Virus record (IMG/VR): IMGVR_UViG_3300027896_000014
Coordinates: 32,001 to 96,000 of that record
Origin: a virus
Strand: one strand, 5' to 3'
DNA: 64,000 nucleotides
The notes under the pieces were generated by a model, which worked only from the letters and a program-made list of their open reading frames with translations, was not told the origin of the DNA and searched no databases. Positions 22,423 to 26,787 of this stretch are shown here, one piece after another. Position numbers and translations under genes: made by a program. Within the stretch, counting starts at the first letter, position 1, and each line of letters opens with the position of its first letter.

Positions 22423-22565
22423 TGGCACAAACAACCATTCCGAGAAATGATCCAAAAGCGGTGAAGAAGTGGGCCGGCGATAGGGAACTTTCCTACGATG
22501 TGCTACGGCAAGCTCAAGAACATCCGCCCAAGAGAAAGAAATTTAAAAGGAGAAGAAAACCATGA
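22422..22565 (+). CDS. 47-aa protein: capsid N-terminus-like peptide plus a basic tail
   Basis: Fills the gap exactly (TGATG and ATGA overlaps); MAQTTIPRNDPKAVKKWAGDRELSYDVLRQAQEHPPKRKKFKRRRKP. Confidence 0.65.
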   Translation: MAQTTIPRNDPKAVKKWAGDRELSYDVLRQAQEHPPKRKKFKRRRKP

Positions 22566-23812
22566 AAAAGTTTTTGATTGCTCTATTGCTTATCTTGATT
22601 CTCGGTGCTGTTCAATATTCTCAAAGTCAAACTACGTATTATCAATCGATTCAGTTTAGGCGGGACACTGCTCAAAATTGGACGAACACAAATCCCGTAC
22701 CTCTTCAAGGGGAGCCTTGTTTTGAATGGGATTCAGGTCGCCTCAAGATTGGCGACGGTCTTTCTCACTGGACGGCACTCCCTTATCAGCCGCCCCCCGC
22801 CGCCTATCCGCCTATTTCATGGGGGCAAATCACGGGGTCAGTATCCAATCAAACAGATCTCTACAATAACTATCTTTCCACCTATGTTCCGATGAACAAT
22901 CCAACATTTACGGGGAAAGTTACGACGCAACCTTCTTCAACGTATAGTGCAGGTATAAGTATTCCCCAGGGGACCGCTCCTACTACTCCTTCAAATGGCG
23001 ATGTATGGACCACAGCGAATGGTCTATACGTTCAAATTAATGGAGTTACAATGGGTCCTTTTGCCATTGGACAACCGGTTAGCAATCCGTCCTGGTTTAA
23101 AAATTTGGTTATTAAAACACCAGCGACCACTCAGTTAACAGTCACCGCCGATGCCGTTGGTTTGCTCAATCCATCTAACAATGCCGCTACCACGATATTG
23201 GGCATCGCTGTAAGTATAACCATTACAAATGTTGGGCCGAACGGACTTGACACAGGAACTCTTTCGGCTTCATCGTGGTATAGTGTGTGGGTAATTTATA
23301 ATCCAACAACCCAAACCGCCGCAGGCTTGATCTCTATTAACACCGGATCTCCAAACCTACCGATTGGGTATACTTATTGTGCAAGGCTTGGTTGGGTTAG
23401 AACCAGTGCAAGTAGCACTTTGGTTCCGACCACCCAATATGGCCGCAGAGTTCAATACGTCAATGGCGGGTCAGGTCTTCCCCTGATGGATAGCGGGCTT
23501 AAAGGAAGTATAACCACTCCTACGTGGGTAGCCGTAGCCACAGGAACTTTTGTCCCTCCCACCGCTTATCGGATTACTGTTTTACCTTACGAGTATGCTG
23601 GTTGGGGCATTGCCGTGTGTCCGAATAGTAGTTATGGTGCATATACCAGTACGACAAATCCACCTTTTGCCGTTATAGACTGGCCAAGCATTAGTGCTGT
23701 TAATGCCGCCGGAACGCCCATAGAAATGACTCTTGAAAGCTCGAATATTTATTGGGCAAGCGGAACGGCTACAAGTTACCTTTATTGTATCGGTTTTGAG
23801 GACAATCTTTAA
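22562..23812 (+). CDS. Tail fibre/receptor-binding protein (Mtd_N/hyaluronidase-N-like domain) with signal peptide
   Basis: IQFRRDTA.NW...NPV..QGE..FE.D.GRLKIGDG..HW..LPY; G.NGLDTG.L.AS.WY.VW; N-terminus MKKFLIALLLILILGAVQYSQS. Confidence 0.8.
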   Translation: MKKFLIALLLILILGAVQYSQSQTTYYQSIQFRRDTAQNWTNTNPVPLQGEPCFEWDSGRLKIGDGLSHWTALPYQPPPAAYPPISWGQITGSVSNQTDLYNNYLSTYVPMNNPTFTGKVTTQPSSTYSAGISIPQGTAPTTPSNGDVWTTANGLYVQINGVTMGPFAIGQPVSNPSWFKNLVIKTPATTQLTVTADAVGLLNPSNNAATTILGIAVSITITNVGPNGLDTGTLSASSWYSVWVIYNPTTQTAAGLISINTGSPNLPIGYTYCARLGWVRTSASSTLVPTTQYGRRVQYVNGGSGLPLMDSGLKGSITTPTWVAVATGTFVPPTAYRITVLPYEYAGWGIAVCPNSSYGAYTSTTNPPFAVIDWPSISAVNAAGTPIEMTLESSNIYWASGTATSYLYCIGFEDNL

Positions 23813-23824
23813 AAGGAGGAAATC

Positions 23825-24151
23825 ATGAAAAAATTCTTACTGGTCTTAATTTTGGTTTTGGGCTTTTCTCTTTCGGCTTTTGCGGCCAAGGAAAGTGTCA
23901 CCTGAGACAACACATCCGGCGGAGTTCCGCTGACAGTCACCACTTATGGAGCTGCGCAAACTGCCTTTATAAGCGTAGAACAGGCTGAGATAAGGTTCAC
24001 CCTCGATGGGAGTGATCCCTCTGTGAATGGGCATCTTCTTGAGCCTGGTATGTGGCTTTCTCTTACCAAGGCCGAACAGATTTGGGGTTTTAGGTGCAAC
24101 CGTACCGGAGGGGCGAGTGGCATCATTAAGTCAGAATATTTTAAAAACTAA
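23825..24151 (+). CDS. 108-aa exported beta-sandwich protein with in-frame TGA at codon 27 (candidate selenoprotein)
   Basis: RBS AAGGAGG; MKKFLLVLILVLGFSLSAFAAKESVT-TGA-DNTSGG...IRFTLDGSDP...GHLL...FRCNRTGG...YFKN-TAA; the frame stays open for 81 codons after the TGA; SECIS-like hairpin. Confidence 0.7.
23906..23938 (+). promoter_or_regulatory. Candidate bacterial SECIS element
   Basis: CGGCGG-AGUU-CCGCUG stem-loop; loop begins 17 nt after UGA; lower GAC/GUC pairing. Confidence 0.6.
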
Positions 24152-24175
24152 AACTTTTTAAAGGAGGGAATAGTT

Positions 24176-24931
24176 ATGAAAAAGAAATTGATTGCTGTTT
24201 TACTTGGAGCGCTTTTCCTTGGGGTCCTTGCTTCCCCATGCTTCTCTCAAAGCATCGGCGGATTTGGAATGGTGCCCGTCACGGGTAGATTGCTCAAAGT
24301 AACGGTTCTGACTTCTGGCACCAGCTTTGTCGCCCAGACCTGGACTACCCAACTCGTCGTTGAAGTTGTGGCTGCTGGCGGTGGTGGCGGTGGTGTTAGC
24401 GGGACTGCTTCAAACGCAGCATGCGGAGGCGGCGGCGGTTCCGGTGGGTATGCCCTTAAATATTTTACAGGAGTAAGCGGGGGCGCAACCTATACCTATG
24501 CAATTGGAGCTGGAGGTACGGCTGGGGCGAACACGGGAGGCACAGGGGGGACAGGAGGCAATACGACCTTCACGGGACCTGGTGCAGTTCTTATCACAGC
24601 CAATGGAGGGCTTGGCGGAGTTGGCATAGTCTACAATACTACGGCTGCGGTCGTCGCTGGTGGAGCAGGCGGAGCGGTAAGCACAAACGGAGACCTCAAT
24701 GCTGGTGGCACGGGCGGAGAATTCGCCAAGCGTGATTCTGGAACTTTGGCCGTCAGTGGCGGCGGAGCGGCAAGCATCTTCGGAGGCGGTGGAGTTGGGT
24801 TGACCGCACAGGGGAACGGAACTAATGCGACCGGATATGGAGCCGGTGCTGGTGGGGCTTTGTCCACTGCTGCTGCCTATACTGGTGGAGTCGGAGCTGG
24901 TGGCGTAATAATCGTCTGGGAATTTTCATAA
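24176..24931 (+). CDS. Glycine-rich fibre-tip-like protein with signal peptide
   Basis: VEVVAAGGGGGG...GGGGSGGYA...YTYAIGAGG...GAGGVIIVWEF (glycine-rich domain typical of phage fibres); N-terminus MKKKLIAVLLGALFLGVLASPCFS. Confidence 0.75.
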   Translation: MKKKLIAVLLGALFLGVLASPCFSQSIGGFGMVPVTGRLLKVTVLTSGTSFVAQTWTTQLVVEVVAAGGGGGGVSGTASNAACGGGGGSGGYALKYFTGVSGGATYTYAIGAGGTAGANTGGTGGTGGNTTFTGPGAVLITANGGLGGVGIVYNTTAAVVAGGAGGAVSTNGDLNAGGTGGEFAKRDSGTLAVSGGGAASIFGGGGVGLTAQGNGTNATGYGAGAGGALSTAAAYTGGVGAGGVIIVWEFS

Positions 24932-24943
24932 TAGAGGAGAACT

Positions 24944-25207
24944 GTGATGCCCTCAATGATTGATCAAAGAGATTTTGAGAAAATAAGTGACCCGAACACA
25001 AAGTTAAATATTCTTTTTGATTACACAGCTAATGTCTATACTCTTCTTTGTAAAAAAGATATTGACTGCGAGAATAGATTAATGAGTTGCAATGGAAGGT
25101 TTAAAACTCTGGAAAATAGAAAGAAGCTCGATATGACTGTGAGCGGGGTATTTGGATTAATCGGAGGTTTCATTTCGGGATTGGCAAAAACGGTATTTCG
25201 CTTTTAA
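24944..25207 (+). CDS. Small membrane protein with a C-terminal TM segment (holin/XhlA-like)
   Basis: Helical N-terminus, hydrophobic C-terminus, start of the lysis cluster. Confidence 0.5.
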   Translation: MMPSMIDQRDFEKISDPNTKLNILFDYTANVYTLLCKKDIDCENRLMSCNGRFKTLENRKKLDMTVSGVFGLIGGFISGLAKTVFRF

Positions 25208-25223
25208 AGATGGACAAGAAATA

Positions 25224-25616
25224 ATGGACCTTCAACTTGTAAGAAAACAAAAGACCGCTCAATCAACGATGGGTGATCTTGCCGTTAACACCCTTCATGA
25301 ATGCTTTACCTTTGAGCCTCCTAAACCCATCCCTGCTGGTATTTATTTGATAGAATTTTATATGTCCCCTGAACATGACTATTTAGTCCCTCTATTGAAG
25401 GACGTTCCAGGTCACACCTACATAGAGATTCATGTCGGGAATTTCCCGAAGGATACCAAAGACTGTATTCTTGTAGGTCAGAATCGCTCTCCCGATGAGG
25501 TAGGGAATTCCTTACAGGCTTTTATCCATCTTATGCTCAAGCACTTAATTCCCGCAGTTTGGTTTAGGAAAGAACTTTTGAGGATTATTATCACGGAGGA
25601 CTTTCAGGAGAATTAA
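25224..25616 (+). CDS. DUF5675-family putative endolysin
   Basis: ST.G.L...C.T.E...IPAG.Y...VPG.TYIEIHVGN.PKDT..CILVG. Confidence 0.8.
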   Translation: MDLQLVRKQKTAQSTMGDLAVNTLHECFTFEPPKPIPAGIYLIEFYMSPEHDYLVPLLKDVPGHTYIEIHVGNFPKDTKDCILVGQNRSPDEVGNSLQAFIHLMLKHLIPAVWFRKELLRIIITEDFQEN

Positions 25617-25617
25617 G

Positions 25618-25914
25618 ATGATAATTTTTTTCTGGAGAAAACTATTTCAAATCTTAGAGGACATCCAAAGAAAGGAGGTGATTATAATGGGTGCATTAGA
25701 AGATCTACAGGCAAAGGTACAGGCTCTCAAGGACTTGGTTGCGACTATTAACACTTCTGTTACAGGAGAGATCGCAAGGGTTGAGGCGATTATTCTTAAT
25801 CTCCAGACAGGAAGTGTTTCTGCCGCAGATGTAGAAAAGGCCGCCACCGATCTTCAGGGTGTGGTCGATAACCTGAAGACGGTTGGAACGACACTGGATG
25901 CGGAAAGACCCTAA
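25618..25914 (+). CDS. Coiled-coil protein of the lysis region
   Basis: Heptad pattern; internal RBS/ATG at 25687. Confidence 0.55.
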   Translation: MIIFFWRKLFQILEDIQRKEVIIMGALEDLQAKVQALKDLVATINTSVTGEIARVEAIILNLQTGSVSAADVEKAATDLQGVVDNLKTVGTTLDAERP

Positions 25915-25975
25915 TAACCTTTTCCCCGATTCCCCAGCGGGTAGTCTGGGGAAAAACTTATAGGAGGTGAGTTAA

Positions 25976-26158
25976 ATGTTAGGAAAAAACTGGAAGACTT
26001 CTTTGTTTGGTTTGTTAGGCGCCGTTTGCATCGCCATCTATCCAATCCTTCAGTCGGGCAAGGTTGACCCTCACGCATTGATCATGGCGATAGCGGTTGC
26101 GGTAATAGGTTTTCTTGCAAAGGACTTCAATGTGACTGGAGGGACAATAAGGCAGTAA
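25976..26158 (+). CDS. Holin (2 TM)
   Basis: KNWKTSLFG...AKD.NVTGG with two hydrophobic segments. Confidence 0.8.
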   Translation: MLGKNWKTSLFGLLGAVCIAIYPILQSGKVDPHALIMAIAVAVIGFLAKDFNVTGGTIRQ

Positions 26159-26171
26159 AGAGAGGAGTAAA

Positions 26172-26342
26172 ATGTATTGTCCATGCGGAAAGGAACTTAC
26201 CTTAACATCATTGAATCCATGGGTGACTTTTACAACAGATAATTGGGGTAAAATCATATCTGGTACTTGAATCCACGGAAAATATTTCCCTCCAGTTAAG
26301 GAGGATAAACCATTTCAGGATTATTTTAAGGAGGTAAGATAA
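26172..26342 (+). CDS. 56-aa CxC...UxH putative metal-binding protein with in-frame TGA at codon 33 (candidate selenoprotein)
   Basis: RBS AGAGGAG; MYCPCGKEL...IISGT-TGA-IHGKYFPPVKEDKPFQDYFKEVR-TAA, ending 1 nt before the next ATG; SECIS-like hairpin. Confidence 0.6.
26283..26307 (+). promoter_or_regulatory. Candidate bacterial SECIS element
   Basis: CCUCC-AGUUAA-GGAGG; loop begins 23 nt after UGA; UAU/AUA lower stem beyond a bulge. Confidence 0.5.
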
Positions 26343-26343
26343 A

Positions 26344-26787
26344 ATGAAAAAGCTTATCATATTATCATTTCTTTTTCTGTTTCTAATGGGTTGCGCAACA
26401 TATCAGACCGCTATTACCAAGATCACGGTAATGGATCAGCAAAATGCTGCCACGACCCGAATTGCGGCCAAAGAGATTGCTTCGACATGGCCTCTCAATT
26501 CAAGCGCCCTCACTGTCGTGCTTAAAAAGTTCACTACATTGCTGCCCTGTGCTTGCAGTGATGATATCAAGACTTTGGACAGCATCGCAGCCAAATGCGT
26601 CAAAAAGGATGCGAATGGGCTTCCCACCTGTGAGGAGCTTACGGACCAGGACATGGGCCAAGTAGTTGTCCTGTGGGGATGGGTATGGGGTAGCATCGTA
26701 AAAAGCGGAGCCGATCAGATTATGCAGACCTTCTTCCCAGCGGTGTTAGCTAAGATCCTCCCTTACGTAACTGCGTTGGGTTTATAG
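26344..26787 (+). CDS. Lipoprotein (possible spanin component)
   Basis: Lipobox MKKLIILSFLFLFLMG-C; Cys-rich; hydrophobic C-terminal part; lies in the lysis cluster. Confidence 0.65.
   Translation: MKKLIILSFLFLFLMGCATYQTAITKITVMDQQNAATTRIAAKEIASTWPLNSSALTVVLKKFTTLLPCACSDDIKTLDSIAAKCVKKDANGLPTCEELTDQDMGQVVVLWGWVWGSIVKSGADQIMQTFFPAVLAKILPYVTALGL

Follow-up and report, generated by a model that had tools for sequence, protein, structure and literature searches.

A candidate selenocysteine codon at an invariant cysteine position in a small bacteriophage protein family

Can a bacteriophage use UGA as a selenocysteine (Sec) codon in its own genes by drawing on the decoding machinery of its host? 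The question is raised by a 64,000-nt stretch of viral DNA (the window), which comprises bases 32001–96000 of the 145,243-bp IMG/VR virus record IMGVR_UViG_3300027896_000014, a record rated complete by CheckV. A first-pass annotation of the region 23825–26342 had pointed to two in-frame TGA codons within a short distance of each other and had proposed that the phage borrows host Sec insertion at both. Both TGAs are indeed present, at 23903 and 26268, each within an otherwise open reading frame (ORF). We regard the chances as evenly balanced that at least one gene of this phage contains an internal UGA read as Sec through the SelB and tRNA-Sec of the host, and the evidence for such decoding comes mainly from the second of the two genes. 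The features in question are as follows (window coordinates).

26172–26342, plus strand: gene 2, a 56-codon ORF with one in-frame TGA, encoding a member of a phage mini-protein family with a CxC...(C/U)xH pattern
26268–26270, plus strand: in-frame TGA 2 (site 2), codon 33 of gene 2, at the invariant Cys of the (C/U)xH knuckle
26289–26304, plus strand: hairpin 2, CCUCC / AGUUAA / GGAGG, 5 bp, loop at +26; its bases encode PPVKE
23825–24151, plus strand: gene 1, a 108-codon ORF with one in-frame TGA, encoding a signal peptide and a beta-sandwich (jelly-roll-like) domain of about 80 residues
23903–23905, plus strand: in-frame TGA 1 (site 1), codon 27 of gene 1, the seventh residue of the predicted mature protein
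23917–23932, plus strand: hairpin 1, CGGCGG / AGUU / CCGCUG, 6 bp, beginning 11 nt past the UGA, loop at +20

Gene 2 begins with the ATG at 26172 and continues for 23 sense codons beyond the TGA to a TAA at 26340–26342, one base ahead of the next ATG. The codon-usage score of the part after the TGA was 0.32, compared with 0.237 ± 0.10 for real genes. About 30 small proteins from phages and metagenomes make up the family of the predicted product; they share an N-terminal domain of about 42 residues, in which M1, C3, C5, G6, G26, C33, H35 and G36 are invariant or nearly so, and the in-frame TGA falls on C33. The CxC...CxH arrangement of the family is a pattern typical of a metal site, with C33 as a putative ligand. 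An AlphaFold2 (AF2) model of gene 2 reached pLDDT values of 82–92 over residues 1–40, and a Foldseek search of the PDB returned no match to it.

The relatives of gene 2 show Cys and TGA alternating at this one codon. Codon 33 is TGC in phage L001, TGT in the locus L003 and TGT or TGC in five further relatives (L008–L012), and Cys occupies column 33 in all other called family members that cover it. A second TGA form was found in L002, a 980-nt contig from another sample, in which TGA at codon 33 is followed in frame by IHGKFFPPV. Over codons 1–32 (96 nt), L002 differs from the Cys-bearing L003 at 19 nucleotides and from the window at 38. Because L002 is nearest to a Cys form and far from the window, at least two independent switches between Cys and TGA are implied. 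Protein sequence is also conserved past the stop: between the window and L001, codons 34–44 contain two synonymous and no non-synonymous changes, as against 13 non-synonymous changes in codons 1–32. The first-pass annotation had named as refuting evidence a finding that neither TGA is conserved or Cys-aligned in relatives; the TGA at site 2 proved to be Cys-aligned and to recur in L002. With this alternation, its independent recurrence and the downstream conservation, together with a well-placed hairpin and a Sec-rich candidate host lineage (both described below), we lean modestly towards the site-2 UGA being read as Sec. At the level of sequence, these features of site 2 together are the standard computational signature of a selenoprotein gene.

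Two further observations concern the gene-2 family as a whole. In L002, a stretch of about 85 C-terminal residues after the Zn-type domain (L002:651-914) corresponds to a stand-alone gene in another locus (L069:64-339); judged by such alignments, the N-terminal domain of the family is a module fused to varying tails. In phage L001, the relatives of gene 2 sit among early or replication-type genes, which argues that gene 2 is not a dedicated lysis gene.

Downstream of both TGAs lie GC-rich stems at the distance of a bacterial Sec insertion sequence (SECIS), with loops that start AGUU, just as the first-pass annotation had described, and in both loops a G stands within the first two positions. 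The consensus of Zhang and Gladyshev for bacterial SECIS elements (bSECIS) reportedly places the apical loop 16–37 nt from the UGA with a G in the first two loop positions. Hairpin 1 has an energy of −10.0 kcal/mol (z −2.3) and hairpin 2 of −8.7 kcal/mol (z −2.6). We counted hairpins with a stem of at least 5 bp, at least four G–C pairs and a loop of 3–8 nt starting 16–37 nt from the U of the UGA. Such a hairpin was present at 3.7% of positions taken at random and followed 1 of the 82 true TGA stops. When a GU at loop positions 1–2 or 2–3 was also required, the share of random positions fell to 0.27% and none of the 215 true stops qualified; for a loop that starts AGUU the share was 0.01%. All these criteria were set after the sites had been seen, so that the small frequencies overstate significance. 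Looser criteria based on the bSECIS consensus are passed by both sites, by 7.4% of random positions and by 1 of 82 true TGA stops, and by the loosest neutral definition the chance of both sites qualifying is about 0.1%. Equivalent hairpins are therefore rarer after true TGA stops (0–1 of 82), whereas equal frequency there had been put forward as grounds for abandoning the proposal. Searched against Rfam, the window contained no family at gathering scores and the region 23800–26400 nothing SECIS-like at E ≤ 10.

Among the relatives of gene 2, a hairpin of at least 5 bp at the site-2 offset was found in L002 (TGA, loop GGU) and in L001 (Cys), and none by the same measure in L003 or L008–L012; it occurs in both TGA forms and in one of the six distinct Cys forms with DNA. 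In L001, the 3' arm of this hairpin reads AAGGAGG and is followed 5 nt on by an in-frame ATG (L001:4127-4141), an arrangement from which translation of a shorter product could start internally, with these bases as the ribosome-binding site.

We then examined how TGA is used elsewhere in the record. The window has a GC content of 45%. Read with the standard bacterial code, the genome shows long ORFs in close succession. Among its stop codons TGA ranks second in frequency, closing 82 of 215 greedily chosen ORFs and 77 of 191 in a stricter set, and ORFs of 1721, 2139 and 2409 amino acids run uninterrupted under code 11. Across all 145,243 bp, ARAGORN detected tRNA-Met and tRNA-Ser(GCU) only and no suppressor tRNA. 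Searches of the full record for tRNA-Sec, selA, selB and selD found none, so that an absence earlier noted for the window holds for the record as a whole. Because TGA is an ordinary stop and the record holds neither a suppressor tRNA nor sel genes, any decoding of UGA must be site-specific and must use host factors. The TGAs themselves are unlikely to be an assembler artefact, since window positions 23800–26400 are identical in Logan's separately assembled contig of the source run (k-mer depth of about 45), a contig that comes from the same sample as the record and is not independent biology. In a search of sequencing runs, the probable source run was the sole match and no RNA run was listed.

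Whether a host could supply these factors was judged from a candidate attachment site elsewhere in the window.

41762–41806, minus strand: attP-like core, the 3' part of a tRNA-Glu(CUC), used to place the host

The core has a 31-nt exact match, extending to 42–47 nt, in 15 genome records assigned to Thermodesulfobacteriota, 'delta proteobacterium', Syntrophaceae, Binatia and HR30, and the full 48-nt tRNA-Glu fragment had no exact match among genome contigs. All four core-sharing Thermodesulfobacteriota genomes that were tested carry selB above the cut-off and a tRNA-Sec of at least 81 bits; the one Binatia genome tested yielded no selB above the cut-off. The UGA-containing genes found in the four Thermodesulfobacteriota genomes include selD (three genomes) and fdhA (two genomes), and genes for FlpD and peroxiredoxin (Prx) that contain an in-frame TGA are also present among them. 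The Desulfobacterota-type host proposed earlier is consistent with these data, the core matching Thermodesulfobacteriota and Binatia and the former decoding Sec. SECIS hairpins in the Thermodesulfobacteriota genomes have stems of 5–9 bp, loops of 3–5 nt (GGC, GGA, GGG, GAUC, GUU or GUC) at +20 to +30 and spacers of 11–22 nt, dimensions that bracket both phage hairpins. The SECIS of the peroxiredoxin gene in L118, with a spacer of 11, 6 bp, the loop GUC and a loop position of +20, has the geometry of hairpin 1, and the apex of hairpin 1, GGAGUUCC, resembles the apex GGAGUUUCC of the FlpD SECIS in L116. Separately, in a Thermodesulfobacteriota metagenome-assembled genome (L048:376-406) the 3' part of tRNA-Glu is preceded by non-tRNA sequence, which looks like the junction left by an integrated element using the same att core.

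Gene 1 also has the marks of a real gene on both sides of its TGA. An AAGGAGG precedes the ATG at 23825, the 26 codons ahead of the TGA encode a signal peptide with a cleavage-type site between AFA and AK, and 81 sense codons follow the TGA up to a TAA at 24149–24151, directly before the ribosome-binding site of the next gene. These 81 codons have a codon-usage log-odds of 0.247; the value for real genes is 0.237 ± 0.10, and off-frame windows reach −0.025 at most. An exhaustive HMMER search returned 587 homologs at E ≤ 1e-3, many of 100–130 amino acids and aligning end to end, and of 25 conserved columns gene 1 departs from the family at 3, a number typical of its members. Judged by coding signal and alignment, gene 1 is a real and otherwise intact gene rather than a decayed pseudogene. 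After the TGA, the next in-frame ATG, GTG or TTG occurs only at 24023, past the conserved FTLDGSDP motif; with no restart codon ahead of this motif, gene 1 would be either recoded or freshly broken.

The AF2 model of gene 1 is a confident beta-sandwich (pLDDT 92). Foldseek gave only weak cupin, jelly-roll and Ena-like matches in the PDB (E ≥ 2e-3), and Pfam matches to CHB_HEX_C_1 and Fn3_assoc fell just under the cut-offs. The family occurs in phage structural modules, and a (major) capsid gene precedes the closest full-length homolog by four genes. Neither peptide patterns nor a word-based protein search recovered close relatives of gene 1 from IMG/VR, and no homolog was found at 22 loci carrying a related fibre gene. 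The fibre gene just upstream of gene 1 (22562–23812) has an N-terminal Mtd_N domain (major tropism determinant, E 3e-14) and a signal-peptide-like N-terminus. The beta-sandwich domain itself recurs in giant metagenome proteins in up to 34 copies (P0004, of 6828 amino acids, P0006, P0009 and others), a pattern suggestive of an adhesin module or of one used to build fibres. Codon 91 of gene 1 (24095–24097) encodes a Cys unique in the family, the position being Ala in 78 of 86 homologs, and the next residue is Asn, where 80 of the 86 have Ile. If residues 27 and 91 are close in the fold, the UGA and Cys91 could form a Sec–Cys pair.

The first-pass annotation had called for a scan of the full genome for in-frame TGAs with a SECIS. 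We searched for in-frame stops with coding-like sequence on both sides for which no neighbouring or antisense gene could account. Most candidates could be traced to the antisense strand of a real gene or to a neighbouring gene sharing the frame, and three unexplained stops remained, all of them TGA: the two sites described above and one in a recombination endonuclease VII gene that lies outside the window.

116271–116519 of the genome (C1; L070:472-720; about 84450 when counted from the start of the window), minus strand: recombination endonuclease VII gene (PF02945, E 2e-16)
116448–116450 of the genome (L070:649-651), minus strand: third in-frame TGA, three codons ahead of the CxxC knuckle

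The third TGA aligns with Gln19 of T4 endonuclease VII, and no canonical start codon follows it. With TGA as the stop in three cases out of three, the scan mildly favours UGA-specific decoding; two of the three TGAs have a hairpin and the third lacks one.

A number of observations weigh against Sec decoding in this phage. At site 1, the aligned column (87 sequences counting the query) contains Val in 58, Ile in 24, Ala in two, Pro in one and Thr in one of the 86 homologs, and Cys in none. No TGA was found at this codon among the 86 aligned homologs or in 11 host-phylum genomes, whose homologs have Val or Ile at the column; the codon in the closest full-length homolog is GTT. The statement that both TGAs occupy Cys-equivalent positions is accordingly right for site 2, with its invariant Cys column, and wrong for site 1, and the two sites are not equally good. 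The hairpin geometry and the shared AGUU loop speak for function at site 1 and the Val/Ile column for the opposite; we consider Sec at site 1 doubtful and, for gene 1 itself, Sec and a recent nonsense mutation about equally likely. At site 2, the window and L002 are the only two TGA forms known, a degenerate DNA pattern having retrieved no further one from IMG/VR, and the open frame after the TGA in L002 may be partly a separate downstream module, as the stand-alone gene in L069 would suggest. The association of hairpin and TGA in this family is weak (Fisher's exact test, one-sided, p of about 0.1). No compensatory changes were seen in the site-2 stem, CCUCC/GGAGG being identical in the window, L001 and L002 while the loop alone varies, and the bases of the stem also encode the conserved PPV(K/E)(E/D) and are retained in the Cys-bearing L001. 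With an invariant stem, this coding role and its presence in L001, coding constraint or an internal Shine–Dalgarno sequence could explain hairpin 2. The endonuclease VII TGA is followed by no hairpin (z 0.0), so that an in-frame TGA in this genome need not be accompanied by a SECIS-like element, which keeps nonsense or leaky read-through alive as explanations. As for the host, the phage hairpins match the SECIS elements of the candidate lineage in size and spacing but not in the first loop base, which is A (AGUU) in the phage and G in all sampled host loops; placement of the host relies on the tRNA-Glu fragment alone; the integrase protein had no homolog in five candidate host genomes at E ≤ 1e-20; and a search of 401 genomes from the candidate host phylum for homologs of the gene-2 family gave matches at noise level only.

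Several of these observations are what one would expect if gene 1, gene 2 and the endonuclease VII gene were simply accessory genes recently inactivated by nonsense mutations, with the hairpins as by-products of coding sequence. The Val/Ile column of site 1 with neither TGA nor Cys among relatives, the structure-free TGA of endonuclease VII and the presence of the site-2 hairpin in L001 without covariation all agree with such inactivation. So does the origin of both hairpins in coding sequence (GGC GGA ... CCG CUG in gene 1 and CCU CCA ... GGA GG in gene 2), with the closest site-1 homolog forming a weaker GGCGG/CCGCU pairing over the same Gly-Gly codons, and insertion sequence (IS)-like and att features noted on the record in the first-pass annotation would fit a resident prophage. 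Yet inactivation would have to have placed the same stop at the same codon in two independent lineages, the window and L002, when no other truncated member of the gene-2 family was found, and it leaves the protein-level conservation downstream of the stops unaccounted for. It would also require that three of three in-frame stops be TGA (about 1 in 27 by chance if stop types are equally likely) and that two hairpins, rare by chance, both have loops starting AGUU; and the intact ORFs of 1721, 2139 and 2409 amino acids speak against general decay. We therefore consider plain nonsense the less probable account, though one that keeps appreciable weight. A related possibility is leaky read-through independent of any SECIS, in which a near-cognate tRNA (Trp or Cys) misreads UGA at a low level, perhaps helped by the hairpin. 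Among bacterial stop codons UGA is the leakiest, TGA accounts for all three in-frame stops, one of them hairpin-less, and no special host machinery would be required. However, Trp at an invariant metal-ligand Cys would inactivate the gene-2 product, the short products (a 26-residue signal peptide and a 32-residue half domain) have no plausible function, unlike those of phage Q-beta, and alternation of Cys and TGA at one column is the pattern of Sec rather than of generic leakiness. Leaky read-through is, on balance, quite unlikely.

Two other explanations fared worse. At site 1, the UGA and hairpin lie between two in-frame copies of a 6-nt direct repeat, GTCACC, the second copy 33 nt downstream, and this pair could support translational bypass in the style of T4 gene 60, with take-off at GUC ACC 23897–23902 and landing at GUC ACC 23936–23941. 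However, the 12 codons that would be skipped encode DNTSGGVPLTVT, the most conserved N-terminal motif of the gene-1 family, whose conservation indicates that it is meant to be translated and makes bypass unlikely; a 6-nt repeat is moreover a weak coincidence, and site 2 has nothing like it. We give bypass almost no credence. A changed code or a phage suppressor, with TGA read as sense throughout (code 4 or 25, or recoded late genes), has precedent in the stop recoding of late genes in other phages (PMC9523058). Against it, 77–82 genes end in TGA, long ORFs are intact under code 11, only three in-frame TGAs occur in 145 kb, no suppressor tRNA was detected, and the candidate hosts use the standard code plus Sec. 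The tallies of TGA stops, in-frame TGAs and tRNAs effectively refute TGA as a general sense codon, and recoding of this kind is scarcely credible here; they agree with the first-pass view of site-specific recoding.

Returning to decoding by the Sec machinery of the host, we propose that host SelB and tRNA-Sec would insert Sec at the UGA of gene 2 (26268), in place of the invariant Cys of the family. CCUCC-AGUUAA-GGAGG would act as a bacterial-type SECIS within the ORF, with its loop 26 nt from the U of the UGA, and the product would be a small mini-protein of the metal-binding CxC...(U)xH type. The same decoding may apply to gene 1, whose product would be a secreted beta-sandwich protein from the fibre region. 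We infer that SelB would bind both hairpins and that Sec would in fact be inserted, and likewise that selenium supply would have a role in phage gene expression. The suggestion that the phage borrows host Sec insertion is hence favoured for site 2, which is Cys-aligned and has a TGA counterpart in L002, and not for site 1, which stands at a Val/Ile position. A broader version, in which both UGAs and perhaps that of endonuclease VII are decoded by the host as Sec, so that the output of accessory proteins is gated by selenium or SelB and site 1 places Sec at a non-Cys position, strikes us as distinctly improbable; if true, it would affect a secreted fibre-region protein and a small metal-binding protein adjoining a holin-like gene.

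If the site-2 UGA is indeed a Sec codon, a bacteriophage encodes a selenoprotein and exploits the SelB/SECIS system of its host. Gene callers would then systematically split or drop such phage genes, selenoproteins would reach past redox enzymes to a small phage protein of metal-binding type, and phage gene expression would be coupled to host selenium metabolism in selenoprotein-rich anaerobes.

The prototype of bacterial genes with an in-ORF SECIS read by SelB is E. coli fdhF. Like bacterial selenoprotein genes, the phage genes have one in-frame UGA in an otherwise intact ORF and GC-rich stem-loops just 3' of it, with loops 20–26 nt away and an early loop G, and at site 2, though not at site 1, homologs have Cys at the UGA column. 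The minimal SECIS of E. coli consists of an 11-nt spacer and a 16-nt hairpin, and site 1 likewise has an 11-nt spacer before a 16-nt hairpin; the hairpins of the selD, fdhA, FlpD and Prx genes of the candidate host have the same dimensions as those of the phage. Unlike bacterial selenoprotein genes, the present genes lie on a phage without sel genes of its own, their products are not oxidoreductases of known selenoprotein families, and the predicted Sec of site 2 would belong to a CxC...UxH mini-domain and act there as a putative metal ligand. The phage stems are also short (5–6 bp), with loops that begin with A rather than G.

Viral selenoproteins are known from eukaryotic viruses, namely the glutathione peroxidase (GPx) homologs of molluscum contagiosum virus and fowlpox virus. 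As in those cases, the virus would depend on the Sec machinery of its host for a UGA of its own; unlike them, captured host genes with a SECIS in the 3' untranslated region (3'-UTR), the phage genes would use a bacterial-type SECIS within the ORF and belong to phage-specific families. In phage Q-beta, the A1 protein arises by read-through of UGA by tRNA-Trp without a SECIS, and the short and long products are both functional. Here too the full-length product needs a decoded UGA, but the short products look useless, the gene-2 fragment lacking two of four invariant ligands by the family alignment, and Cys alternates with UGA at one of the columns. Reassignment of stop codons in phages, such as that of TAG to Gln in crAss-like phages (PMC9523058), shares with the present case in-frame stops in late-region phage genes; reassigned phages have many such codons per gene and suppressor tRNAs, whereas here there are three TGAs in 145 kb and no suppressor tRNA. 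The literature we searched contained no report of a bacteriophage selenoprotein, viral ones being described only in eukaryotic viruses and phages appearing only with stop-codon reassignment, in agreement with the first-pass statement that Sec use is not known for tailed phages. The proposed mechanism is the ordinary bacterial SelB/SECIS route, and what would be new is its use by phage-specific gene families.

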